Source of the DNA: Polyangiaceae bacterium | Lineage (GTDB): Bacteria; Myxococcota_A; Polyangia; Polyangiales; Polyangiaceae | Length of the DNA stretch: 64,000 nucleotides | Direction: 5' to 3' | Assembly (NCBI GenBank): GCA_041940405.1 | Contig: JBGTSH010000002.1 | Location: 14,068 to 78,067, forward strand | In this document: positions 2,797-60,026 of the stretch, in pieces | How positions within the stretch are numbered: the first letter of the stretch is position 1 | How the letters are laid out: each line of letters opens with the position of its first letter | The notes under the pieces: model-generated | Told to the model about the DNA's origin: nothing | The model's input: the letters and a program-made list of their open reading frames with translations, nothing else | Databases searched by the model: none | Position numbers and translations under genes: made by a program

Positions 2797-3513
2797 TCAG
2801 CGGCGGTCCACGCGACGCGTTCCGTCGGCGAGCACATGCTCGATCGCGCGACCCTGATCGTAGAGGGTCGCGCCGACGGGATAGCCGTCGTCCTCCCACA
2901 GCTTGGTCCAGCCGTGCCGCACGCCGTTCGACCACATGACTTGCGCGCAGACGGCGCCGCCGGGCGCGTAGCTCGTGTGAAGGCCGTGCTCGCGATGCAC
3001 CTTGAGCTCGCGATCGACGAAGAAGCCGACGCTCGCGCGACCCCCGGTCGGGTGATACTCGACCGACCAGCGGAGCCTTCCGTTTTCGTAGAAGCGCTGC
3101 GACTGAAGCCGCTTCGATCGGTAAAAGCTGAGCGTGAGGCCGTGCCAGATCGGTGCGCCGCCGATGTCGTTGGGGATCGCGCAGCCGACCGACGTCTCGG
3201 TGACGTACACGCGCGCGCCCGCGGGACATCGGACGGTCGCCTCGGTCACCTGGTCACGGGTGATCATATCCGGGAGCCACGTGGGCACCTGGGCCGCGGG
3301 CTCGGGGGTGAAGATCTCGCGAGCCTCTTGGGAGAGCTCGGGGCGAGCCACCCTTGCGAGCGACGGCTTCGCGGTGGCCGCCATCGACAGCGATCGGCGC
3401 AGCGAGTCGATCTGCGCCTCGATCGTCGCGCGCTTCGCCGGGTCCGCGGCCGAGAGCTCGGCCTCGAGCTCGGCGATCATCGTCTTGAGATCCGAGTCCC
3501 GACCGCTCGTCAT
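2797..3513 (-). CDS. MORN-repeat-variant (YwqK-like) protein
   Basis: The C-terminal half has repeated G-x-HG/W-x-Y-x-NG type units (WHGLTLSFYRSKRL.., FYENGRLRWSVEY.., HGLHTSYAPGG.., RHGWTKLWEDDG). The start was trimmed to ATG 3513, which is preceded by AGAAGAGGTG. Confidence 0.7.
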   Translation of the reverse strand: MTSGRDSDLKTMIAELEAELSAADPAKRATIEAQIDSLRRSLSMAATAKPSLARVARPELSQEAREIFTPEPAAQVPTWLPDMITRDQVTEATVRCPAGARVYVTETSVGCAIPNDIGGAPIWHGLTLSFYRSKRLQSQRFYENGRLRWSVEYHPTGGRASVGFFVDRELKVHREHGLHTSYAPGGAVCAQVMWSNGVRHGWTKLWEDDGYPVGATLYDQGRAIEHVLADGTRRVDRR

Positions 3514-3613
3514 CACCTCTTCTCTACCTTGACCGTCGCGCCGTTGGAAACGGGGAACCTCGGGCGGCAGGGCTTGTCCAACGCCCTTCGTGGAGCCCGA
3601 AGAGCATGCTCGG

Positions 3614-4612
3614 ATGCCGAGCCTCGTGCTGCCTTTTGCGCTCGTCGGGCTCGCCGCGACGGTCTTTACCCTCACGGCGGTGTCGGTGGTCCGCGTCGGC
3701 GCACAGGGTGCGAGCCTCGTTTGGGCGGGGGGAACCGGCGCCTTCCTAGGAGCCGTCGTCGGGATCGTCCTGCGCCGATGGCGAGTCCTTCACGATCCGA
3801 TGTTTCGCGAGAAGGCGACCGTTCGCGTCGGCGTCGTGGTCGTCGCCGCGGGCATCGTGGTGGGGTCTGTCCTCGGCGTCGAGGCCTGGGGCGCCGACGG
3901 CATCTTGCCTTTTGCGCTCGGCGGGGGCGTGCTCTCACTCGGGTTCGTGCCTGCTTGCACGACGGTGCTGGGCGCGGGTCGAAGCGCGGCGCGCGCCCGG
4001 CTCGGCTCGGTCGTCGCGGATGCCGATCGGCGGACGATCTGGGGTACGACATTCTCGGCGATCGCCGTCACGACCCTCGCCGGGCTTCCGGCGATCGCCG
4101 GCGGCTGTGTGCGTCGTGTATCGGCGCCGCAACAGGCGTCGGCCGTTCTCGCAGTGGGGATCGCGTGTGTGCTCGGCGGTGCGCTGCTCGCCATCTTGGA
4201 CAAGCGGGGCATGACGGCTCTCCGTCGCTTGGCGCTCACGCGACCGCTCGAAGAGGCAGGGGAGCACGCGACGGAGTCGAAGGCGTGTGTGGACGTGGGG
4301 CTCGGCGACGCGTCTTGGGCACCCGCGCCCGGTGCGTCGACCTATCGCAGCGCCAACCAAGAGCAGGTCCTCCTCCGAGGAGATATCGACGCCGCGCTGG
4401 CTGCGCTCGACGACGCCTTCAAGCGTCGCGTGACGACGCAGGGCCTGGCTGCGCTCGCGATCGCCTCGACGCTGGCTACCTGCCTTGCGGCAGACGTACG
4501 CCCAGTCGGCGCCGAAGGATGCTTCCGGCGCGTCCGTGGGACCGAATCCGTCGGGTGCGACTGCGTCAGCAAGCAGGAATTCTTGGCGTCGCGCGGCAAG
4601 CTGCCACATTGA
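3614..4612 (+). CDS. hypothetical multi-pass membrane protein
   Basis: Several hydrophobic segments (LVLPFALVGLAATVFTLTAV, GAFLGAVVGIVL, VGVVVVAAGIVVGSVLGV and others). No recognised family; the start and the C-terminal end are uncertain. Confidence 0.5.
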   Translation: MPSLVLPFALVGLAATVFTLTAVSVVRVGAQGASLVWAGGTGAFLGAVVGIVLRRWRVLHDPMFREKATVRVGVVVVAAGIVVGSVLGVEAWGADGILPFALGGGVLSLGFVPACTTVLGAGRSAARARLGSVVADADRRTIWGTTFSAIAVTTLAGLPAIAGGCVRRVSAPQQASAVLAVGIACVLGGALLAILDKRGMTALRRLALTRPLEEAGEHATESKACVDVGLGDASWAPAPGASTYRSANQEQVLLRGDIDAALAALDDAFKRRVTTQGLAALAIASTLATCLAADVRPVGAEGCFRRVRGTESVGCDCVSKQEFLASRGKLPH

Positions 4613-4676: not shown

Positions 4677-6323
4677 ATGTCCCGATCGAAGGACAAGCTG
4701 GCGACCTACCGTAAAAAGCGCGATTTTTTCGTCACGCCCGAGCCACGTGGCAAAGCGAAACGAAGGGTCAAAGGCTTTGGGTACCTGATCCAGAAGCACG
4801 ACGCGAGCAGGCTGCACTACGACTTTCGCCTCGAGCTCGACGGCGTCCTCTTGAGCTGGGCGGTTCCCAAGGGGCCGAGCTTGTCGCCGAAGGAGCGCCG
4901 GCTCGCGGTGCGGACCGAGGACCATCCGATCGAATACGGCTCGTTCGAGGGCGTGATCCCGGAAGGCGAGTACGGCGGCGGCACCGTGATGCTCTGGGAT
5001 CGCGGCAGCTGGGAGCCGAACGAGGATCCACGTGAAGGATTGGAGAAGGGACACCTCGTCTTCACGCTGCATGGCGAGCGCTTGCGCGGCCGGTGGCACC
5101 TCGTCCGAACGAGGCCGCGGGCGAGAGAGAAGAACGAGAGCTGGCTCCTCTTCAAGGGCAAGGATGCCGAGGCGGTGAAAGGGCGAGAGCCGGTGGATGT
5201 CGAGCTCACGAGCGTCGTTTCGGGGCGCTCGATGGACGCCATCGCGAGCGACGCCGATCGGTCGTGGAGCTCGGAGGAAGGCCGCGCGAAGAAGGCGAAG
5301 AAGAAGCGGGCTCCGGCCCCCCGAGCCAAACGATCGCAGGCGGCGAGCACCGACTTGAGCGGGCTCGTCGCGCAGATCCCGACGTCGGTGAAGCTCACCA
5401 ACCTCGACAAGGTTCTCTTCCCCGACGGCCTCACCAAGGGGGCGCTCATCGCGTACTACGCGATCGTCGAGCCCTACATGCTCCCCCACCTCCAAAATCG
5501 TCCGCTGACGCTCGTGCGCTGCCCGAATGGAGCGCCGCGGGGCTCATCGCGCGTGCACCAAACGCCGAGCCGCCGCGACGCCGGCGAGGTCGCCGCGGCG
5601 AAGCATTGCTTCTATCAAAAGCACGTAAAACGCGGGCTGGACCCGGCCATCATCGGCGTCCCCATTCGCGAAGACGACGGAACGATCGGCGAGTACATGG
5701 CGGTCGGCGATCGCGACGGCCTCTTCGCCGTCGCGCAGCTCGGCTCGCTCGAGCTCCACACCTGGGGGTGCCACATCGACGACGTCGAGCGGCCCGACGC
5801 TGCGGTCATCGATCTCGATCCGGATGAAGCGCTCCCCTGGCGTTCGGTGGTCCGCGCGGCGTTCGAGGTGCGCGCGGTGCTGGAAGATCTCGGCTTGAAG
5901 AGCTGGGTGAAGACGACCGGAGGCAAGGGCATCCACGTTTGTTTCCCAATCGTCCGACGCACGTCGTGGGACGACTTCAAAGACTTCACGCACGGGGTGG
6001 CGACGACGATCGTCGCGAGCGATCCCAAGCGCTACACCGCGAACATGGCGAAGGCGCAACGCACGGGGAAGATCTTCATCGACTACCTCCGCAATGGCAG
6101 AGGGGCGACGGCCGTCGCACCCTATTCGACACGGGCAAGGAGGGGCGCTCCCGTCGCTGCGCCAATCACCTGGGACGAGCTCGAGGCCGGCGCGCATCCG
6201 CGTGATTTCAACCTGCGATCGATGATGAGCCGCCTCGAAACGCTGAAGGTCGACCCTTGGGCCGACTTCTTGAGAACGAAGCAATCGATCACGCAGGCCA
6301 CTTGGCGGAAGCTCGCCGCCTGA
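4677..6323 (+). CDS. LigD-like NHEJ protein with 3'-phosphoesterase (PE) and polymerase/primase (Pol) domains and no ligase domain
   Basis: PE motifs: YLIQKHDASRLHYDFRLELDGVLLSWAVPKGPS and GEYGGGTVMLWD. Pol motifs: LTNLDKVLFP, IDLDPDE, KTTGGKGIHV and DYLRNGRGATAVAPYSTRA. They are joined by a Lys/Ala-rich linker. The start was trimmed to ATG 4677 (MSRSKDKLATYRKKRDF). Confidence 0.88.
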   Translation: MSRSKDKLATYRKKRDFFVTPEPRGKAKRRVKGFGYLIQKHDASRLHYDFRLELDGVLLSWAVPKGPSLSPKERRLAVRTEDHPIEYGSFEGVIPEGEYGGGTVMLWDRGSWEPNEDPREGLEKGHLVFTLHGERLRGRWHLVRTRPRAREKNESWLLFKGKDAEAVKGREPVDVELTSVVSGRSMDAIASDADRSWSSEEGRAKKAKKKRAPAPRAKRSQAASTDLSGLVAQIPTSVKLTNLDKVLFPDGLTKGALIAYYAIVEPYMLPHLQNRPLTLVRCPNGAPRGSSRVHQTPSRRDAGEVAAAKHCFYQKHVKRGLDPAIIGVPIREDDGTIGEYMAVGDRDGLFAVAQLGSLELHTWGCHIDDVERPDAAVIDLDPDEALPWRSVVRAAFEVRAVLEDLGLKSWVKTTGGKGIHVCFPIVRRTSWDDFKDFTHGVATTIVASDPKRYTANMAKAQRTGKIFIDYLRNGRGATAVAPYSTRARRGAPVAAPITWDELEAGAHPRDFNLRSMMSRLETLKVDPWADFLRTKQSITQATWRKLAA

Positions 6324-6333
6324 TTGCGCCGCG

Positions 6334-7062
6334 TCACTGCGGGTGACGAGTCATCGCCATCGCGAGCTCGGCCTCGTGGGTCAGATCGAGGCGCAGCGGC
6401 GTGAGCGAGACGTAGCTCTCTTGCACTGCCCAGCGATCCGTTCCCTCGTCCACGGCCTCGAGTGGGCGCACCGTCAGCCAGAAGTGCTCGCGGCCCATCG
6501 GATCCTTGCCGGGCCGCACCTCACCGTCGTAGTGGCGCACCGATTGACGAGTCCAGCGAAGACCCTTCGGCTTCTCCGGGATGTTCACGTTCACGAGGTG
6601 AAGGTTCTTGTCGGGCAAGAGCAGCTCCAGGACCTTCTCGACCCACGGCTCGAGCGCTTCGAAGTCGGGCTCTTCGTCCGTGACGGGGGTGCTCAGCGCA
6701 ATGCCGCGTAGACCCAGCAAGGTGGCCTGCTTTGCCGCCGCGAGCGTGCCGGAATGCCACATCGCGTTGCCGAGGTTCGTTCCCAGGTTGATGCCCGAGA
6801 GGACGACGTCGACATGCTCCCAATGGTGGGCTCCGAGCGCGACGCAGTCGGCCGGCGTGCCGTTCACGCGGTAGGCGTCGAACCCCTTGATGGGTGTGCG
6901 GCGGTACCGCAGCGGTCGCGCCGCCGTGATGGCATGTCCCATGGATGATTGCTCAACGTCGGGCGCCACGATGCGCACGTCGCCAAAGCGGCTCGCCACC
7001 TTTGCGAGCGTCGAGAGCCCGGGGCTGTAGATGCCGTCGTCGTTGCAGATGAGAAGTTTCAT
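6334..7062 (-). CDS. surE: 5'/3'-nucleotidase SurE
   Basis: MKLLICNDDGIYSPGL..., GINLGTNLG and SGTLAAA motifs. The start was trimmed to ATG 7062. Confidence 0.92.
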   Translation of the reverse strand: MKLLICNDDGIYSPGLSTLAKVASRFGDVRIVAPDVEQSSMGHAITAARPLRYRRTPIKGFDAYRVNGTPADCVALGAHHWEHVDVVLSGINLGTNLGNAMWHSGTLAAAKQATLLGLRGIALSTPVTDEEPDFEALEPWVEKVLELLLPDKNLHLVNVNIPEKPKGLRWTRQSVRHYDGEVRPGKDPMGREHFWLTVRPLEAVDEGTDRWAVQESYVSLTPLRLDLTHEAELAMAMTRHPQ

Positions 7063-50685: not shown

Positions 50686-52464
50686 ATGCTTCGTCGCGCT
50701 TGGTGGATCGTCGCCGTTGCTTGTGCGGTTGCTCCGGTCTTCGCTGCTTGTGATGGCGGTGGCGACAACAGCGGAGGAGGCGGAGACGACTCGAGCTCGT
50801 CGACCGAGGACGGCGCTACGACCACGAGCGACGCCGGCTCGACCACGAGCACCGGCATCGCGCCCGAGTGCTCGGTGAACACCGAGTGCCCGATGGGCCA
50901 GATCTGCCAGGCCGGCACGTGTGTCCCCGGCTGCGCCGGAGACAACCCGTGTCCACTCGGCGAAGCGTGCTGCAGCGGTCAGTGCATCGATCCGCTGACC
51001 GACGTCCTCCACTGCGGCACGTGCGACAACGACTGCCCGACAGCGGGGAACATCACGACGACCTGCGACAACGGCATGTGCGGGTTCGGCGGCTGCGCGC
51101 CCGGCTACTCCGACTGCAACGGCACCTACGACGACGGCTGCGAGACGAACGGCGCGTGCGAATGCACGCCGGGCGAGACGCAGCCTTGCTACCAAGGACC
51201 GCCGGGTACCGAGGGCATCGGCACCTGCCTCGGCGGCACGCAGACGTGCAACATGAACGGTTCGGGTTTCGGCGTCTGCATGGGCCAGGTGCTTCCGGTC
51301 GACGAGGTCTGCGCCGACGGCCTCGACAACGACTGCAACCAGCTCACCGACGACAGCCTCGACGCCGACGGCGACGGATGGAAGGTCTGCGACGGCGACT
51401 GCTGCGACGCGATCGGCATCGTCTGCGGCAACCCCGAGCTCGTGAACCCCGGTGCGTACGAGTACACAGGCAACATGGTCGACGACGACTGCGACCTGTC
51501 GACGCCCGACGCGTCGGCGCCTGCCGCCTGCAGCACGGTCGAGAAGCTCAGCGGGGTCACCGGCAGCGACGTGATCCAGGCAATGGACCTCTGCCAGACG
51601 ACGACGGCGAACGCGCCGCTTCCGCTCAAGAAGTGGGGCGTCATCACGAGTGAGTTCCGCCTCGCGAACGGCGCCGTGCCGAACGCGGCACAGCTCTCGA
51701 ACATGCAGGGCTACCAGGCCGCCATCATGACGATGTACGGCAACGCTTCGAACGTCGCGCAGAAGGGCCCGACGTTCGCCGGTATCTCCAGCGGTCGCAT
51801 GCGTGACACCGGTGACGTGGGTTACGTCGCGCCCAACGGTGGCACCAGCTTCTCGACGACCGGCTCGACGCCGCCCGCGAACTACCTCGCGAACCACGGC
51901 GGCGCGCTGCCGGCCTCGGCGAGCTGCTACGGCAACTGCCCGGCAGGCTCCGGCGCGTACGACTCGATCAACGTTCGCGCCGACATCCGCGTGCCCACGA
52001 ACGCGCAGTCGTTCAGCTACAAGTTCCGCTTCTTCTCGTCGGAGTTTTGGTACTACTCCTGCACGCAGTACAACGACTTCTACCTCGCGCTCCTGACGAG
52101 CGCAGCCCCTGGGATCCCGGCCGACAAGAACATCTCGTTCGACTCTGCCAACAACCCCGTCAGCGTGAACAACGGGTTCTTCGACGTCTGCAACGTGCGC
52201 GGCTGCCAGACCTGCCCGGCAGGTACGGGCGCGCTCGCTGGTACGGGCATGGACATGGTCACGAGCGCGCCTGGATACGGGAACGGTGCGACCGGCGGCG
52301 CGACCAACTGGCTCCTCACCACCGCCCCGGTCGTGCCCGGTGAGACGATCACCGTCGAGTTCACCGTCTTCGACGTGAGCGACTCGGTCCTCGACTCGCT
52401 GACGCTGCTCGATCAGTTCGAGTGGTCGGTCACGCCGTCCACGGTCGGTACCATCGAGGACTGA
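50686..52464 (+). CDS. secreted lipoprotein with MopE-like Cys-rich metal-binding-type repeats and a choice-of-anchor-L-like C-terminal domain
   Basis: Lipobox VFAAC, DGLDNDCN..DADGDGW..CDGDCCD motifs, and C-terminal SFSYKFRFFSSEFWYY..YNDFYLALL...NISF. The start was trimmed to ATG 50686. Confidence 0.7.
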   Translation: MLRRAWWIVAVACAVAPVFAACDGGGDNSGGGGDDSSSSTEDGATTTSDAGSTTSTGIAPECSVNTECPMGQICQAGTCVPGCAGDNPCPLGEACCSGQCIDPLTDVLHCGTCDNDCPTAGNITTTCDNGMCGFGGCAPGYSDCNGTYDDGCETNGACECTPGETQPCYQGPPGTEGIGTCLGGTQTCNMNGSGFGVCMGQVLPVDEVCADGLDNDCNQLTDDSLDADGDGWKVCDGDCCDAIGIVCGNPELVNPGAYEYTGNMVDDDCDLSTPDASAPAACSTVEKLSGVTGSDVIQAMDLCQTTTANAPLPLKKWGVITSEFRLANGAVPNAAQLSNMQGYQAAIMTMYGNASNVAQKGPTFAGISSGRMRDTGDVGYVAPNGGTSFSTTGSTPPANYLANHGGALPASASCYGNCPAGSGAYDSINVRADIRVPTNAQSFSYKFRFFSSEFWYYSCTQYNDFYLALLTSAAPGIPADKNISFDSANNPVSVNNGFFDVCNVRGCQTCPAGTGALAGTGMDMVTSAPGYGNGATGGATNWLLTTAPVVPGETITVEFTVFDVSDSVLDSLTLLDQFEWSVTPSTVGTIED

Positions 52465-54797: not shown

Positions 54798-55268
54798 TCA
54801 GATCCGGACGCTCTCGCGGTACGGGCCACCATGCCCGCGCCGCCAGAAGCCCTCTTCCAGCATCCGCGCGAGGGATGCGCGCTGGTTGTGGTCGAGCGCC
54901 GCGTGGACCTTCGCCATCGAGCTGGCCACGGTCTCGCGGAGCCTGCGAAGCGCGTCGTCGTGCCGCGAGAAGACGTCTCCGAGCCTTTCGGCGTCGAAGC
55001 TCTCGTCGGAGAGCATCCGCGCTACGTCGCCGCGGGTGAGCTCTGCCTCGCCGCGCATCGACGAGAACGCCGCGCGCACGTCATCGACCGCGGCCACGAT
55101 CACCTTCTCTTGGCTCGGGCTCGTGTCGAGCCGCGAGAACAAACCGTTCAAGAATCCTCGCGGCCCGCCCCGGCGAAAGCCGCGCCCGTAACCGTGGCGA
55201 AAGCGGCCGCGGCGAATCATCGCGACCAGCCCCACCAAACACGCCGTGCCAATCAAGAAACCGAGCAT
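54798..55268 (-). CDS. Spy/CpxP-like periplasmic stress/heavy-metal-sensor family protein
   Basis: N-terminal TM, Gly/Arg-rich segment (RGRFRHGYGRGFRRGGPRG), then helical repeats (LSDESFDAERL.., LDHNQRASLARMLEEG). Confidence 0.65.
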   Translation of the reverse strand: MLGFLIGTACLVGLVAMIRRGRFRHGYGRGFRRGGPRGFLNGLFSRLDTSPSQEKVIVAAVDDVRAAFSSMRGEAELTRGDVARMLSDESFDAERLGDVFSRHDDALRRLRETVASSMAKVHAALDHNQRASLARMLEEGFWRRGHGGPYRESVRI

Positions 55269-55420
55269 CGCGTCCTCCTGCGAGCCCAGAGTGCGATCCG
55301 AGTGTGAAGACCGCGCTCGGATCGGCGTGAAGTTTCGTTAACCGGTTTCGTCGTTGTGAGGCGACGAACCGAGAGCAATTCCTGGCCCCGGCGGCTCGTT
55401 GGCCCCAAACTGCCGGCCGA

Positions 55421-56635
55421 ATGTCCGGATCCAGCCGAGCGTCCGACGTCCTCAGGCGTCCCAACGTGCGCCGCTGGATCTCGGCCCGGGTCGCCGCCGG
55501 GATCGCGGCGACGATGATGCGTGCCGTCTTCCTCTGGCACATCTACGACCTCTCGAAATCGAAGGCCGTCCTCGCGCTCGTCGGGCTCCTGTCGTTCTTG
55601 CCCGCGCCATTCGCCAGCCTGGCCGGAGGCGCGATCGCCGACGCCTACGATCGACGAAAGATCGTCCTCGTCGCGCAGACCGTCGGCCTCTGCTGCGCGG
55701 CGATGCTCTCGATCCTCGGCGCGACCGGAGCAGCCAGCGTTCCGATCATGCTGGCGATCATCGTGACGAACGCCGGGGCGTCGGCGTTCGAGGCGCCCGC
55801 GCGGCAAGCGACGTTGCCGACGCTCGTACCGAAGGAAGAGTTTTCGCGCGCGGTCACCGTCATGGGAACGGGCGGCGCGTTCGCGTTCATCTCCGGACCC
55901 GCGCTCGGCGGCGTGCTCATCGCGGCGCACTCCGTGGCGTTCGCGTACGGATGCGCCGCGGCGCTCTACGTCGTATCGATGCTGCTCGTCTCCCGCGTCG
56001 AGACGCCGCGCGCCTCCGACGACAAGCGCGCGATCTCGATCGCGGGCCTCTTGGAGGGGCTTCGCTTCGTGAAGCAAAAGCCGGTCATCCTCGCGGCCAT
56101 GTCGATCGATCTCTTCGCAGTCATCTTCGGCGGCGCCACCGCGCTCTTGCCGGTCTATGCAGAGGAAATCCTCGCCGTGGGCGAGGCAGGCTACGGCCTC
56201 CTTGCCGCGTCGTTCGAGATGGGCGCGCTCCTCACGAGTCTGCTCCTCATCGTCTCGCGACCGGTGCGCCGCCTGGGCCGCGCGATCATCATCAGCGTCG
56301 TCGTCTACGGTCTCGCCACGATCGTCTTCGGTATCTCGAGGAGCTTCCCGCTCAGCATCGCCGCCTACGTCATCGCCGGCATGGCCGATCAAGTCAGCGT
56401 CGTCGGCCGATCGACGCTCGTCCAGAGCGAGACCCCGGACGAGCTCCGCGGTCGCGTGTCGAGCGTGAACATGATCTTCATCGGCGCCTCGAACCAGCTC
56501 TCCACCGCCGAGGCCGGCCTCGTCGCGCACCTCACGACGCCCACGATCAGCGTCGTCTCCGGCGGGATGATGGTGCTTGTCGTCGCCTTGGTGGCGGTCG
56601 TGCTCGTGCCGAAGCTCTGGCGATACACGGGGTAG
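55421..56635 (+). CDS. MFS transporter (EntS/MFS_3-like)
   Basis: About 12 TM segments. The GGAIADAYDRRKI loop motif is typical of MFS loop 2-3. Confidence 0.88.
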   Translation: MSGSSRASDVLRRPNVRRWISARVAAGIAATMMRAVFLWHIYDLSKSKAVLALVGLLSFLPAPFASLAGGAIADAYDRRKIVLVAQTVGLCCAAMLSILGATGAASVPIMLAIIVTNAGASAFEAPARQATLPTLVPKEEFSRAVTVMGTGGAFAFISGPALGGVLIAAHSVAFAYGCAAALYVVSMLLVSRVETPRASDDKRAISIAGLLEGLRFVKQKPVILAAMSIDLFAVIFGGATALLPVYAEEILAVGEAGYGLLAASFEMGALLTSLLLIVSRPVRRLGRAIIISVVVYGLATIVFGISRSFPLSIAAYVIAGMADQVSVVGRSTLVQSETPDELRGRVSSVNMIFIGASNQLSTAEAGLVAHLTTPTISVVSGGMMVLVVALVAVVLVPKLWRYTG

Positions 56636-56695
56636 CGCGGGCGGCCGCCTCGAGCGGCCGGGACTGCCAGCCGTCGCGGCCGTTCGTTGCTGGGT

Positions 56696-56970
56696 CATGC
56701 CGCGGACACTCGCGGTCGATGAGCCGGACACTCGTGGGTGATGGCGCGGCCATCTGTCTTCGACGAGACCCACGAGGACGTTCGAGGTCGATGGCGCGGC
56801 CATCCGCGTTCGATGAGACCCGGGAGGACGTTCGATGGCGATGGCGCGGCCATCTGCGTTCGATGAGACCGAGGAGGACGTTCGAGGTCGATGGCGCGGC
56901 CATCCGCGTTCGATGAGACCGAGGAGGACGTTCGAGGTCGATGGCGCGGCCATCCGCGCGCGACCGAGAC
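56696..56970. repeat. tandem array, 50-bp period, 5 hairpin cores plus one degenerate unit (left array)
   Basis: GATGGCGCGGCCATC starts at 56740, 56790, 56840, 56890 and 56940. The unit consensus is GATGGCGCGGCCATCYGCGTTCGATGAGACCGAGGAGGACGTTCGAGGTC, and there is a degenerate copy from about 56696. The array abuts the transposase stop codon. Confidence 0.95.
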
Positions 56971-57851
56971 TAGGGCGGCGGTTCGTAATCGATGGCTCGC
57001 TCATCCGACGGCCATTGGATGCGCCCGGCTGGGGGCGGCGAGCTGTTCGCGCCGGTAAGCAGCCGCGCGTCGCCGAGGCACAACCATGCAGCGGCGTGCG
57101 CATCCGACACCGAACGGTGATGACGCCATGCCGTCTTGCGCGAAACCGACACCGCTCGCGCGAGCGCGGAAACATCCCTCCAACCGGACGCCCGGGCGAG
57201 CGCAAAGAAAGTCCCTCGCGCCGGGCCTCGCTGAGCGAGCCTAACGATCGGCACGCGGTGCGCGGCGGCGGTCGCGGCGAGGATTCGACCCAGTGAATGG
57301 GTTGCGACAGAGGCGGGACGCGAGGGGTGCGGGAACGGCGTACCGCCTACGACGACGGCCGGATCGCCGGACACGTACGCGTGCCAGCGTGCGGCAAATC
57401 CCGCGGGCGACTCGCTCAACACCCGCGCCAGCCGCGCGGCGCTGATCCACGGATCTACGACCGCACCCACGATATCGCGATGGGTCGACCACACCCACTC
57501 GAGGGGGTCGCGTGCCAGACGGCTGCGACAAGGGTTCAGGGAAACATAACGGATCTGTCTCCGAAGGTGCTTCGTGTCGACGATCTCGTTGGGCATCGGC
57601 GTCGGCTCCCACCGCAGGCCGTGGCCCGCTCGGTGGCGCCGCGCACCCGAGAGGATTGCCGCCAACCTCGCGCGTGCTTCAAGGGCGGTCTCGCTCCAAG
57701 CCAAGACGTGCAAGTGATCAGGCATCAGGACTGCGGCCAGCGCATTCGGAAATGCGTGACGCAAGGCTGACCAGAGATCGCCGCTCAACGGAGCCTCGGT
57801 CAGCGAGACGTCGCGCCGGTAGGCTCGCGCTACGAGATGGAACACTTTCAT
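56970..57851 (-). CDS. REP-associated tyrosine transposase-like protein (HUH/Y1, IS200-like fold) with a C-terminal HTH-like extension
   Basis: HUH motif in AAVLMPDHLHVLAW and catalytic-Tyr region RRQIRYVSLNPCRSRLARDPLEW. The C-terminal ~110 aa (..LGRILAATAAAHRVPIVRLAQRGPARG..ALARAVSVSRKTAWRH) looks like a DnaA-C-type HTH. Confidence 0.8.
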   Translation of the reverse strand: MKVFHLVARAYRRDVSLTEAPLSGDLWSALRHAFPNALAAVLMPDHLHVLAWSETALEARARLAAILSGARRHRAGHGLRWEPTPMPNEIVDTKHLRRQIRYVSLNPCRSRLARDPLEWVWSTHRDIVGAVVDPWISAARLARVLSESPAGFAARWHAYVSGDPAVVVGGTPFPHPSRPASVATHSLGRILAATAAAHRVPIVRLAQRGPARGTFFALARASGWRDVSALARAVSVSRKTAWRHHRSVSDAHAAAWLCLGDARLLTGANSSPPPAGRIQWPSDERAIDYEPPP

Positions 57852-58006
57852 GCTCGTCGTCTCTTCAGGAACTGGACCAGCCTCTTCGTTCGAGGATCCC
57901 GCGACGCTTTCACTCGCAGCCCCCGGCGCGCGTCGGATCGGCCGTGGCGGCCGCCACCGAGCTCATCCTCCACAAGAGGCGCTCGGTTCGCATCTCGTTC
58001 GACGTC

Positions 58007-58321
58007 GATGCCAGAGCCATCCCTTTCAAACGTCCTCGCGGGTCCCGTCAGCGCGAGATGGCCGTGCCATCTGCGCCGAACGTCCACGTGGGTCTCGTCA
58101 GCGAGCGATGGCCGCGCCATCTGGGCCGAACGTCCACGTGGGTCTCGTCTGCGAGCGATGGCCCCGCCATCTGTGCCGAACGTCCCCGTGGGTCTCGTCA
58201 GCGAGCGATGGCCCCGCCATCTGCGCCGAACGTCCTCGTGGGTCTCGTCTGCGAGCGATGGCCCCGCCATCTGCGCCGAACGTCCACGTGGGTCTCGTCT
58301 GCGAGCGATGGCCCCGCCATC
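58007..58321. repeat. tandem array, 50-bp period, 7 hairpin cores (right array, inverted relative to the left array)
   Basis: GATGGC-NNN-GCCATC starts at 58007 (degenerate), 58057, 58107, 58157, 58207, 58257 and 58307. The unit consensus is GATGGCCSCGCCATCTGCGCCGAACGTCCACGTGGGTCTCGTCWGCGAGC. Confidence 0.95.
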
Positions 58322-58408
58322 GACCGGCAACGTCTTTTGGGGGAATGGCTGCGGTCCGCCGTCTGCGGGGTGCCGCGCGACCAACTTTCCCCTTGCGCCG
58401 CGCGTTGA

Positions 58409-58424
58409 GAATGAATATTCATTC
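58409..58424. promoter_or_regulatory. perfect 16-bp palindrome GAATGAATATTCATTC (candidate TetR operator O1) overlapping the tetR-like start codon
   Basis: Read directly. It is an AT-rich island in about 70% GC DNA, and a near-identical copy lies at 59094. Confidence 0.75.
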
Positions 58425-59037
58425 GTCCGTGGCTCGAGCAACAGCGGAGCGACCTGACGACAAGCGCGAGGCGATCTTGCGCGCGGCGCTCAAGCTGTTC
58501 GCGGAGCGGGGGTTTTACGGGACGGCTGTGCCCGAGATCGCCGAGGAGGCGAGGGTCGCGGCGGGAACGATCTACCGCTACTTCGAGGGGAAAGAGGCGC
58601 TCGTGAACGCCCTCTTCAAGCGCTACAAGTCGGCGCTCGCGGCGACCTTGATGGGCGACTTTCCCTACGACGGATCGCCGCGGGAGCAGTTTCATCACTT
58701 CTTCGTGCGAGCGATGGCCTTCGCGAAGAAAGAGAAGCTCGCCTTCCAGTTTCTCGAAGCGCACCACCACGCTCCGTATCTCGATGAGGAGAGCCGCGCG
58801 ATCGAGGAGCGGACGCTCGAGCCGGCGCGGATCTTCTTCGAGCAGTGCGAGCGGCTGAAGGTCACGCGGAAGGTGGCCCCCGAAGCGCTGGGGTCAATCG
58901 TTTGGGGCGGCATCGTCGGACTCGTGAAGTCGGGGTGGGAAGGCCGCTTGGTCATCGACGCGAAGGTCGAAGGGGCGATCGAAGAAGCGCTTTGGGACGC
59001 GCTGAAGCGGCCGGCCTCCGAGCGATCGAGCGACTGA
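58411..59037 (+). CDS. TetR/AcrR-family transcriptional regulator
   Basis: N-terminal HTH KREAILRAALKLFAERGFYGTAVPEIAEEARVAAGTIYRYFEGKEAL. ATG 58411 lies inside the palindrome, and GTG 58429 is an alternative start. Only the 3' part of track ORF 57850..59037 looks real. Confidence 0.88.
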   Translation: MNIHSSVARATAERPDDKREAILRAALKLFAERGFYGTAVPEIAEEARVAAGTIYRYFEGKEALVNALFKRYKSALAATLMGDFPYDGSPREQFHHFFVRAMAFAKKEKLAFQFLEAHHHAPYLDEESRAIEERTLEPARIFFEQCERLKVTRKVAPEALGSIVWGGIVGLVKSGWEGRLVIDAKVEGAIEEALWDALKRPASERSSD

Positions 59038-59051
59038 GGTTCGGTGTGTCG

Positions 59052-59081
59052 AGGCCCGCCTGGTTCGAGGCGGGCTTTCTT
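59052..59081 (+). terminator. intrinsic terminator after the TetR gene
   Basis: GCCCGCC-tggttcga-GGCGGGC followed by TTTCTT. Confidence 0.7.
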
Positions 59082-59093
59082 GGTTCGGACTCA

Positions 59094-59109
59094 GAATGAA
59101 TGTTCATTC
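59094..59109. promoter_or_regulatory. GAATGAATGTTCATTC (candidate TetR operator O2, one mismatch to O1), 33 nt upstream of the SDR start
   Basis: Read directly from the sequence. Confidence 0.75.
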
Positions 59110-59141
59110 GTTGTTCTGCGGAATAGGAAAAGGAGCCTCTC

Positions 59142-60026
59142 ATGAAGCCTCTCGTCGTCCTCATCACGGGTGCCACTGCCGGTATCGGTCGCGCGGCTGC
59201 GCTCGAGCTCGCTCGAGCCGGGCATCGCGTCTTCGCCACGGGCAGGCGTGCCGAGGCGCTCGCGTCACTCGCCAAGGAAGCGGAGGGCCTCGCGCTCGAG
59301 ACGCTCGTGCTCGACGTGACGAAGCAAGCTTCGATCGAGAGCGCCAAGGCAGAGATCGATCGCCGGACCGGCGGCCACGGCGTCGACGTGCTGGTCAACA
59401 ACGCGGGCTATGGCCTCGTCGGTCCGCTCGAGGACATCTCGGATGCGGATCTCCGCAAGCAGTACGACACGAACGTGTTCGGCCTCATGGCGATGACGCG
59501 CGCGTTCCTTCCTGCGATGCGTGCTCGGAAGAGCGGTCGCGTCATCAACGTGAGCAGCATGGGCGGTAAGGTGACCTTCCCGTTCATGGGCGCGTACAAC
59601 TCGACCAAGTACGCGATCGAGTCGCTGTCCGACGCGCTCCGCGTCGAGGTCGCTCCGTTCGGCGTCTACGTCTCGCTCGTGGAGCCGGGCGCCATCAAGA
59701 CGGAGTTCGCCGACGTGGCGATCGGCGGAGCCACGCGCAACGAGGGCTCGGCGTGGGGGCCCGCGATCGAGGAGTCCGACGCGATGCGCGCGAAGTTCGA
59801 CGCGACCGCCGTCGGTCCCGATGTTGTGGCGCGCGCGATCCACCGCGCGGCAGTCGCGCGAAGGCCGTCTGCCCGCTACGTCGCGCCCTTCAGCACGTAC
59901 GCCGTCCTCGCGTTCTTCCGTCTGATGCCCACGCGCTGGATGGACTGGCTCCTCGCCGTCGCGACCGGCAACACCGCGAAGAAGCTCTTCGGCGGCCGAA
60001 AGCGCGACGCTCTGCTCGCCGCCTGA
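59142..60026 (+). CDS. SDR-family oxidoreductase
   Basis: TGATAGIG, NNAG and YNSTKYAIESL motifs. RBS AAAGGAG. Confidence 0.92.
   Translation: MKPLVVLITGATAGIGRAAALELARAGHRVFATGRRAEALASLAKEAEGLALETLVLDVTKQASIESAKAEIDRRTGGHGVDVLVNNAGYGLVGPLEDISDADLRKQYDTNVFGLMAMTRAFLPAMRARKSGRVINVSSMGGKVTFPFMGAYNSTKYAIESLSDALRVEVAPFGVYVSLVEPGAIKTEFADVAIGGATRNEGSAWGPAIEESDAMRAKFDATAVGPDVVARAIHRAAVARRPSARYVAPFSTYAVLAFFRLMPTRWMDWLLAVATGNTAKKLFGGRKRDALLAA

Follow-up and report, generated by a model that had tools for sequence, protein, structure and literature searches.

RAYTs (REP-associated tyrosine transposases) are Y1 proteins whose genes are always flanked by inverted repetitive extragenic palindromes (REPs) with a GT[AG]G head, and all RAYTs of the study that reported this pass the Pfam model PF01797 (Nunvar 2010, PMC2817692). 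One third of them lie in bacterial interspersed mosaic elements (BIMEs), and head-to-tail joining is seen in some clusters (PMC2817692). Repeats are also known to gather next to the gene itself: ordered tandem arrays of REPs and REPINs occur in P. fluorescens SBW25, where a REPIN cluster stands beside each RAYT gene (Bertels & Rainey 2011, PMC3116915), and the REPs of Marinomonas are concentrated beside tnpA (Corneloup et al., PMC8266576). Here we analyze a locus within a 64,000-nucleotide (nt) stretch of DNA from a Polyangiaceae bacterium (contig JBGTSH010000002.1), which we call the window and whose positions are used throughout. At this locus, a gene for a 293-amino-acid (aa) protein with HUH nuclease motifs is bracketed by two tandem arrays of a 50-bp unit that contains a short hairpin.

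A second kind of described locus, the TIRtron, encodes longer Y1 proteins (TIRYTs) and is flanked by inverted repeats, dispersal of which is rare (Di Nocera et al. 2013, PMC3733652). These terminal inverted repeats (TIRs) are sometimes self-complementary, sometimes overlap gene ends and may form dimers or clusters, and the motif GGGGWSAS was described for "the majority" of them, not for all (PMC3733652). TIRYTs have been equated with TnpA-Y1 subclass 2.1, which carries a C-terminal Bac_DnaA_C, HTH_23 or HTH_28 domain, and REP-like sequences were not found near subclass 2.1 genes (Quentin et al. 2018, PMC6006769). REPs are often reiterated in tandem, which has been described as a clustering process (PMC3733652, PMC3116915).

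A preliminary description of the Polyangiaceae locus had called strictly head-to-tail 50-bp units unusual and not known to be described for Myxococcota. To regard strictly head-to-tail REP arrays as undescribed would be wrong in general: tandem REP and REPIN arrays and head-to-tail BIMEs have been published (PMC3116915, PMC2817692, PMC3733652). Tandem REP/REPIN clusters beside RAYT genes are already known, and the locus does not found a new category. What is new is a large uncatalogued clade of HUH-Y1 proteins with a helix-turn-helix (HTH) domain, the cognate palindromes that flank its genes, and the recurrence among its loci of an array period of about 51 bp. The reading that we favor, with a probability of roughly 0.6, is that the window contains a REPtron- or TIRtron-type locus. 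It would belong to a divergent clade, so far uncatalogued, of Y1 HUH nucleases of single-stranded DNA (ssDNA), which are tethered by their HTH domain and whose flanking units have been multiplied locally.

Inverted hairpin arrays around the gene

The gene, delimited from its open reading frame, homology and a structural model, lies on the minus strand at 56970-57851, with one array on each side. Downstream, the left array (56740-56958, plus strand) consists of four full 50-bp units and a fifth hairpin, and Tandem Repeats Finder (TRF) detected it with a period of 50 bp, 4.4 copies and 91% matches. Upstream, the right array (58007-58321, minus strand), delimited from TRF, hairpin cores and inverted-repeat pairs, consists of six good units and one degenerate gene-proximal unit; the TRF span is 58029-58321, with a period of 50 bp, 5.9 copies and 93% matches. 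A pattern search of the window that allowed up to one mismatch found the hairpin core GATGGCNNNGCCATC (GATGGC-NNN-GCCATC) 12 times, compared with 0.25 matches expected by chance. Within the arrays these cores are stepped by exactly 50 bp, and 11 of the 12 have perfect 6-bp stems. The five left cores, at 56740, 56790, 56840, 56890 and 56940, all have exact stems and the loop GCG, as first described. Seven right cores had also been claimed, of which six (58057-58307) have exact stems, with the loops CGT, CGC and, in four copies, CCC, whereas the gene-proximal core at 58007 carries a single stem mismatch (GATGCC-AGA-GCCATC).

All units within an array point in the same direction, with one hairpin per 50 bp, and the two arrays are inverted relative to each other, with 76-83% complementarity over 65-79 nt. 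Every one of the 11 upstream-downstream repeat matches at the locus is inverted. The REPtron layout that had been proposed, in which cognate hairpin repeats bracket the gene in inverted orientation, was therefore borne out. The left unit reads GATGGCGCGGCCATC-CGCGTTC-GAYGAGACC-nnnnn-GGACGTTCG-AGGTC, and the right unit, on the minus strand, reads GATGGCGGGGCCATC-GCTCGCA-GACGAGACC-CACGT-GGACGTTCG-GCGCA. The 50-bp period is no multiple of three.

For comparison between the arrays, ten units were aligned in one orientation. Units of the same array are on average 88-90% identical and units of different arrays 70%, and the two consensus units agree at 35 of 50 positions, in line with the approximately 70% first estimated for the mutually inverted arrays. 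Conservation between the arrays falls into blocks: the stem is identical at 12 of 12 positions, compared with 21 of 35 positions in the linker, and within the linker two blocks are invariant or nearly so, namely GAYGAGACC (unit positions 23-31) and GGACGTTCG (positions 37-45). Left and right arrays differ completely in the three segments between the conserved linker blocks. Exact matches to the first block occur in the left array (plus strand) at 56762, 56812, 56862 and 56912, and exact matches to the second at 56776, 56826, 56876 and 56926, which together span 56762-56934; in the right array (minus strand), exact matches to the two blocks lie at 58091-58291 and 58077-58277, respectively.

Because tandem duplication yields phasing automatically, exact 50-bp phasing is by itself no evidence of selection, and because the units of an array are homogenized to the identities given above, stem invariance inside an array is not independent evidence either. 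The early statement that the stems are invariant while the loop varies thus stands for 11 of the 12 cores, fails at 58007 and does not bear on selection in the way that was supposed. The informative signal is the block-wise conservation between two separately evolving arrays. We also considered an extended outer stem around the 15-nt hairpin, which was dropped, as only a 4-bp TCGA/TCGA pairing remained on the left and nothing consistent on the right.

The edges of the arrays are less regular. At the outer boundary of the left array, a degenerate 22-bp duplication (CGGACACTCGCGGTCGATGAGC / CGGACACTCGTGGGTGATGGCG) occupies 56693-56749 (plus strand; TRF period 22, 2.6 copies) and is 73-77% identical to a segment of the 50-bp unit; what had been read as a degenerate left unit starting at 56696 is this duplication, which resembles part of a unit. 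At the gene-proximal end, a degenerate left unit at 56940-56989 (plus strand), placed by sequence register and by a weak nhmmer match at 56981-57008, covers the stop codon of the gene and its last ~6 codons. On the other side of the gene, a non-repeated spacer of 155 bp (57852-58006, minus strand) separates the start codon from the upstream array and presumably holds the promoter and the 5′ untranslated region. No sigma-70 consensus or intrinsic terminator was found at 56500-58500, although a consensus scan is uninformative for a genome of 67% GC, and an Rfam search of 55000-60000 returned no match.

The nuclease and its family

The protein contains the motifs MPDHLHVL and RYVSLNP, which had been identified as the HUH and catalytic-tyrosine motifs of its kind, and alignment confirmed this assignment. 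The best sequence match in the PDB is E. coli TnpA-REP (4ER8; E 5e-4, or 1e-7 with the family profile), in which HMH stands opposite HLH and DYIYINP opposite RYVSLNP. An AlphaFold (AF2) model built from 40 homologues was of high quality (pLDDT 92, pTM 0.87), and a Foldseek search with it returned the same entry first, TnpA-REP bound to the REP hairpin (E 5e-5), followed by IS200/IS605 TnpAs. The HUH/Y1 nuclease domain occupies residues ~1-130, with H46-L-H48, Y102 and N106; a linker (~131-185) and a helical HTH domain (~186-265) follow, and the tail beyond is disordered. Residues H46, H48, R101, Y102, N106 and P107 are invariant among the 40 homologues, which indicates that the catalytic set is intact. 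The data support placing the protein among the HUH/Y1 enzymes of the RAYT superfamily, but it is not a canonical RAYT. Of the earlier proposal of a REP-associated tyrosine transposase, the superfamily is thus retained, 4ER8 ranking first by both sequence and fold, and the narrower class is not, as the protein falls below the RAYT cutoff and has the extra HTH domain, which that proposal had overlooked.

Conservation is not limited to the nuclease domain. Residues 131-293 are likewise conserved and include the invariant motifs HxYxSxD, in the linker, and LCLGDxRL. When the C-terminal region (~165 aa) was modeled alone (pLDDT 84), its best fold match was the complex of the DnaA DNA-binding domain with a DnaA box (3PVP), with a probability of 1.0 and an rmsd of 2.0 Å over 68 columns. 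The models HTH_23, HTH_28, HTH_29 and HTH_31 match about 10 of the 40 family members, the window protein not among them. Judged from the structural model, the C-terminal domain would have an HTH fold like that of the DnaA DNA-binding domain. The two invariant motifs (residues 157-163 and 259-264, respectively) lie outside the HUH core and the predicted HTH, and the first of them contains a second invariant tyrosine, Y159.

The family to which the protein belongs is large. A word-indexed search gave 42 clusters, and an exhaustive profile search, with results clustered at 50% identity, gave 623 representatives at E <= 1e-30, a number that rises to 2352 at E <= 1e-10; most of the 150 top profile matches listed cover near-full profile length. 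Members come mostly from Myxococcota-like metagenome-assembled genomes (MAGs), with Polyangiaceae, Polyangia, Myxococcales, "Deltaproteobacteria" and Bdellovibrionota among the named sources. Most are annotated as "hypothetical", and JGI calls some of them RayT. The NCBIfam model REP_Tyr_transpos matches all 40 of the 40 members examined (E <= 0.01), and PF01797 matches only one of them, weakly.

We also scored published sequences with the family hidden Markov model (HMM). TIRYT cores reached 50-67 bits (maximum 66.7) and RAYT cores 33-45 bits (maximum 45.3). The match to TIRYTs is limited to the catalytic core, stopping at about position 130-160, and does not extend into the C-terminal tail. 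By these sequence scores the catalytic core appears nearer, by a modest margin, to TIRYT / TnpA-Y1 subclass 2.1 than to classical RAYTs, and the locus fits best into the RAYT-like class as a branch that is sister to, or unclassified but close to, TIRYT / subclass 2.1, with REPtron-like flanks that have been amplified into single-hairpin arrays. Two members, L074 and L085 (related loci are designated by L numbers), are highly diverged paralogues that lie ~46 kb apart on contig JACCDG011772562.1, which resembles the situation in genomes with several distinct RAYTs; L085 has a flank module of its own, and the flanks of L074 showed no shared repeat in our screen.

Flanks of related genes and genomic context

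To compare the flanks of the family, we used a set of 86 related loci. About 25 of them have a lineage-specific palindromic module of 50-130 nt on both sides of the gene; it usually consists of two inverted hairpins in a REPIN-like arrangement, and its downstream copy often overlaps the stop codon. The modules are wholly different between lineages; L108 and L109, relatives with 60% identity, have GTTTCA/TGAAAC hairpins. Flank sequence therefore co-varies with protein lineage. In a Polyangiaceae MAG (L008, 58% identical protein), direct copies of another hairpin pair, AAAAACGGAGCACTC ... GAGTGCTCCCTTCTTGAGCACTCG, occupy 1-90 and 1126-1200, and the contig begins inside the upstream module copy.

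Tandem arrays, counted if they had a period of at least 20 bp and at least 2.5 copies, have a density of 0.22 per kb next to the gene, 8-fold that found farther off on the same contigs (0.027 per kb). In an autocorrelation screen, 14 of 151 flanks near the gene were periodic, compared with 4 of 93 distal ones. The lag was 50-52 bp in eight of the 14 periodic near flanks, a share that uniform lags of 15-100 bp would put at ~3.5%. In the protein tree, arrays of 50-52 bp are spread over six separate branches or more (the window; L015; L026; L037; L035 with L062; L065), on both sides of the gene in L037 and with 13.9 copies in L062. The units of different branches are unrelated in sequence, and most contain a 6-9 bp palindrome or a nested 45-nt hairpin. 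Two simpler accounts of these arrays were rejected: a motif common to all of them (e.g., GTTCG) matched the window in only L026 and L110, and the arrays do not mark one clade, being scattered over the tree.

Three loci illustrate how the arrays vary. In L037, the two arrays are direct and identical at 48 of 52 positions. In the distant member L010 (P0040, on a 5.69-Mb contig), inverted arrays with a period of 72-73 bp at 3028-3806 (10.7 copies) and 5951-6427 (6.6 copies) enclose the nuclease gene together with a radical-SAM/BATS (BioB-like) gene, and a 16-nt palindrome, ACATAACCGGTTATGT, is perfectly conserved between them. In L110, whose protein is 52% identical to that of the window, a diverged array of ~49 bp lies at 309-640 and 1648-1682; its GATG..CATC hairpins are 48-50 bp apart (6 observed versus 0.09 expected), and each is preceded by GCGTTCG-N5, as in the window. 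The homologous array at this level of protein identity indicates that the architecture is old and has outlived most of the protein similarity, and because TRF missed it, TRF counts underestimate the frequency of arrays in the family. A further repeat, of ~120-140 nt with at least five reiterations, lies downstream of the homologue in L051 (3904-6675) and is probably a repetitive coding region; one stretch of it is 79% identical to window positions 51300-51376.

The locus lies between a gene for an MFS transporter and a TetR/SDR/GNAT group, no compositional anomaly was detected at it, and homologues of its gene stand in unrelated neighborhoods. Wherever identical genes come from different assemblies, their flanks are identical too, which indicates that they represent the same locus and not transposed copies, and the gene itself appears stationary. 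A scan of a genome collection, which does not include the source genome or its close relatives, with the pattern GACGTTCG-N5-GATGGC-N3-GCCATC gave 16 single matches in unrelated taxa (Microbacterium, Cupriavidus, Bradyrhizobium and others), which were considered as dispersed units and judged to be due to chance. Among these matches to the 20-base pattern (L092-L107), six Microbacteriaceae, five of them Microbacterium, and three Cupriavidus genomes have one each, which suggests a conserved coding segment that matches by coincidence. Next to the right array, a perfect 16-bp AT-rich palindrome, GAATGAATATTCATTC, at 58409-58424 overlaps the start of the TetR-family gene (58411-59037), and a copy with one mismatch lies at 59094-59109, just upstream of the SDR gene (59142-60026), with zero expected by chance; the pair probably represents TetR operators that control the TetR and SDR genes.

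Comparison with known systems and rival readings

With REPtrons (RAYT/TnpA-REP; PMC2817692, PMC3333891, 4ER8) the locus shares the closest solved structure and the closest curated HMM, the catalytic set of HUH, Y and N(+4), and a gene bracketed by inverted short GC-rich palindromes, with one palindrome per protein lineage; repeat clusters beside the gene are also known there (SBW25 REPIN clusters, Marinomonas). It differs in a protein that scores below the RAYT model cutoff and has an extra HTH domain, in the absence of the GT[AG]G head, and, as far as the window shows, in dispersal: REPs are defined by genome-wide abundance, whereas the window unit has no copies in the other ~62 kb. In BIMEs, REP and iREP alternate, whereas all units of a window array point one way. 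The SBW25 arrays come closer, as ordered head-to-tail repeats of REP plus flanking sequence that form a cluster beside each RAYT gene. However, their units are REP doublets or GI-GIII pairs with a period of ~184 bp, few copies and hundreds of dispersed members, whereas the window unit is a single 15-nt hairpin with a 35-nt linker, present in 5-7 copies per side with no dispersed members seen.

TIRYT loci resemble that of the window in having a Y1 HUH protein that is longer than RAYTs and carries a C-terminal extension of predicted HTH type, and inverted flanking repeats that may overlap the 3′ end of the gene and are usually non-dispersed in TIRtrons. In contrast, the C-terminal ~165 aa of the window protein have no detectable sequence homology to the ~80-aa TIRYT tail, Pfam Y1_Tnp is unmatched, GGGGWSAS is absent at the locus, and the flanks are multi-copy 50-bp tandem arrays where TIRtrons have single TIRs. 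Unlike subclass 2.1 as surveyed, the family has REP-like palindromes on both sides of the gene. IS200/IS605 insertion sequences (ISs), such as IS608 and ISDra2, share the Y1 HUH fold and have subterminal hairpins that are recognized as ssDNA, and the flank modules are direct in many relatives of the window gene. However, the 293-aa protein is twice the length of TnpA (~130-150 aa) and has an HTH domain, and the locus lacks multiple copies in the 64 kb, has no tnpB and has inverted arrays. Rolling-circle double-strand origins, which combine an HUH Rep with a nick hairpin and adjacent iteron blocks, also resemble the locus; the window enzyme is Y1 transposase-like and not Rep-like, no replicon is evident, and there are 12 units in two inverted chromosomal arrays. 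The arrays differ from CRISPR in that the 35-nt stretch between hairpins is itself ~90% conserved within an array, leaving no unique spacers.

The favored reading rests on the architecture of the locus, the fold and intact catalytic residues of the protein, the co-variation of protein and flanks, and the recurrence of the ~51-bp period. On this reading, the N-terminal domain, with its HUH metal site, Tyr102 as nucleophile and Asn106, would recognize the 15-nt hairpin in ssDNA, for example in the lagging-strand template. It may then cleave and rejoin DNA near the hairpin, at a site set by adjacent conserved bases, in the manner of E. coli TnpA-REP and IS200/IS605 TnpA. The HTH domain may bind one of the linker blocks as duplex, either GGACGTTCG or GAYGAGACC, and such binding would tether the enzyme to its own flanks. 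The arrays would then be cognate substrate or binding units that were amplified locally, whether through enzyme-mediated reinsertion beside an existing unit or through slippage or unequal exchange, and the units would be kept homogeneous by concerted evolution.

Several results weigh against this reading. No copy of the unit was found in the window outside the locus (pattern with up to one mismatch; best outside nhmmer match, E 0.27), and relatives rarely have copies of the flank module farther than 450 bp from the gene (L025, L038/L039, L085). The local evidence, from window and relatives, leans against a REP-type genome-wide abundance, and a RAYT-type mobilizing activity is unsupported. Neither GTAG nor GTGG, the REP hallmark, stands beside the hairpin, which is preceded on its 5′ side by GAGGTC / GCGCA on one strand and, on the opposite strand, by CGCG / GAGC. 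The TIRYT motif GGGGWSAS does not occur within 56600-58400, where the nearest resemblance is G[ATG]GGACGT. The comparison of the protein with Y1 and RAYT profiles, which the preliminary description had named as a test that could refute it, gave no Y1_Tnp (PF01797) match at E <= 1 in a Pfam scan and 38.2 bits (E 1e-9) with the NCBIfam RAYT equivalog REP_Tyr_transpos (NF047646), the cutoff of which is 80. The C-terminal fold match to 3PVP has a weak E-value of 0.087. Within the family, clear arrays are present at only ~10-20% of the loci and so are not obligatory, and their orientation is not uniform, being inverted in the window and L010 and direct in L037.

The hairpin itself is also ambiguous. 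When single and double units were folded as ssDNA, the hairpin was predicted, but the 6-bp hairpin is no stabler than shuffled sequences (z -0.1 to -1.8), and the stems show no compensatory substitutions within the window locus. Folding thermodynamics neither supports nor refutes a role for the hairpin, and at the window locus an ssDNA hairpin is indistinguishable from a double-stranded palindromic operator, which explains the conservation equally well. The suggestion that selection acts on a DNA hairpin thus cannot be separated from selection on a duplex operator.

We therefore considered whether the palindrome and linker blocks are duplex HTH sites on which the phased arrays form a repressive or architectural complex, with no role for HUH cleavage. 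This account is tenable, though we regard it as unlikely. A 6-3-6 palindrome is typical for the operator of a dimeric HTH protein, and the lack of significant ssDNA stability and of covariation within the locus fits such a site. The C-terminal domain resembles that of DnaA on its 9-mer box, and one of the conserved blocks is a 9-mer; between the upstream array and the start codon there are 155 bp. Several periods in the family (50-52, 72-73, 42 and 31 bp) come close to multiples of 10.5 bp, 50-52 bp corresponding to roughly five helical turns and 73 bp to roughly seven, but periods of 27, 34 and 40 bp are found as well. The invariance of the HUH and tyrosine residues across the family argues further against an operator-only role, as it places the nuclease chemistry under selection, and the nearest structure is that of a RAYT gripping a REP hairpin. 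In addition, many relatives (L014, L026, L035, L044, L061) have long nested hairpins of 45-75 nt, which greatly exceed operators in size and fold well, with z-scores of -3 to -4.7.

A related possibility, which we hold to be improbable, is that this clade of HUH-Y1 proteins with a DnaA-like domain maintains phased arrays (~51 bp, and ~73 bp in some lineages) as a platform in cis for cooperative HTH loading and hairpin extrusion, with the period under selection. If this were true, ~51 bp would provide about five helical turns for HTH loading akin to that of DnaA at an origin, and the hairpins would be melted or extruded and presented to the HUH active sites. Selection would act on the array period and not on its sequence, and the system would be self-contained, chromosomal and non-dispersing, with a role for the host or the element in, for example, local DNA processing, copy-number switching or regulation instead of REP dissemination.

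The arrays might also be a neutral by-product, in which one flanking REP or TIR per side was expanded by slippage or unequal recombination into functionless copies, in which case the exact phasing and the similarity inside each array would be no more than traces of recent tandem duplication. The difference between 88-90% identity within arrays and 70% between them points to homogenization or recent expansion, the array edges hold degenerate units, most family loci have single modules in place of arrays, and REPs are commonly reiterated in tandem (PMC3733652, PMC3116915). However, six or more branches have the period of 50-52 bp with units of unrelated sequence (8 of 14 periodic flanks versus ~3.5% expected), L110 keeps a diverged yet phased homologous array at 52% protein identity, and the gene's surroundings show an 8-fold enrichment of arrays over more distant parts of the same contigs, which makes this explanation doubtful.

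Still less plausible is an autonomous IS200/IS605-like insertion sequence, in which gene and arrays form one mobile unit and the arrays represent multiplied ends. Subterminal hairpin-bearing repeats do border the gene, homologues occur in unrelated neighborhoods, and many relatives have direct flank modules like the ends of IS200/IS605. Against mobility, no second copy of the unit or gene exists in the 64 kb, identical homologues of different assemblies share their flanks and so represent the same locus, the same-contig paralogues L074 and L085 are highly diverged, neither tnpB nor a compositional anomaly is present, and the protein, at twice the size of IS200 TnpA, has its best scores against non-IS classes.

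That short-read mis-assembly created the arrays or their copy numbers can be set aside almost entirely: a Logan unitig from other read sets (7 samples) ends inside both arrays, many close homologues are on contigs of 1-1.7 kb, and the copy number of ~90%-identical 50-bp units, hard to fix with short reads, is a short-read estimate, but the independent unitig carries an identical gene and exactly matching inner units, which argues against an artefact, the units bear distinct substitutions in a consistent order, and dozens of independent JGI, ENA and NCBI assemblies have the same architecture.

The family touches two open questions, the origin of REP-like repeats and the role of domesticated Y1 transposases. 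Surveys have described the HTH-bearing subclass 2.1/TIRYT proteins as lacking REP-like partners or as having single inverted repeats, whereas this family has modules on both sides of its genes, and in several independent branches those modules have been amplified locally into arrays of one preferred length. It is therefore suited to testing whether a Y1 enzyme multiplies its substrate in cis, what the HTH domain targets, and whether the array period is under functional constraint. The family, which Pfam Y1_Tnp does not see, also exposes a gap in annotation and a source of contig breaks in metagenome assemblies of Myxococcota.

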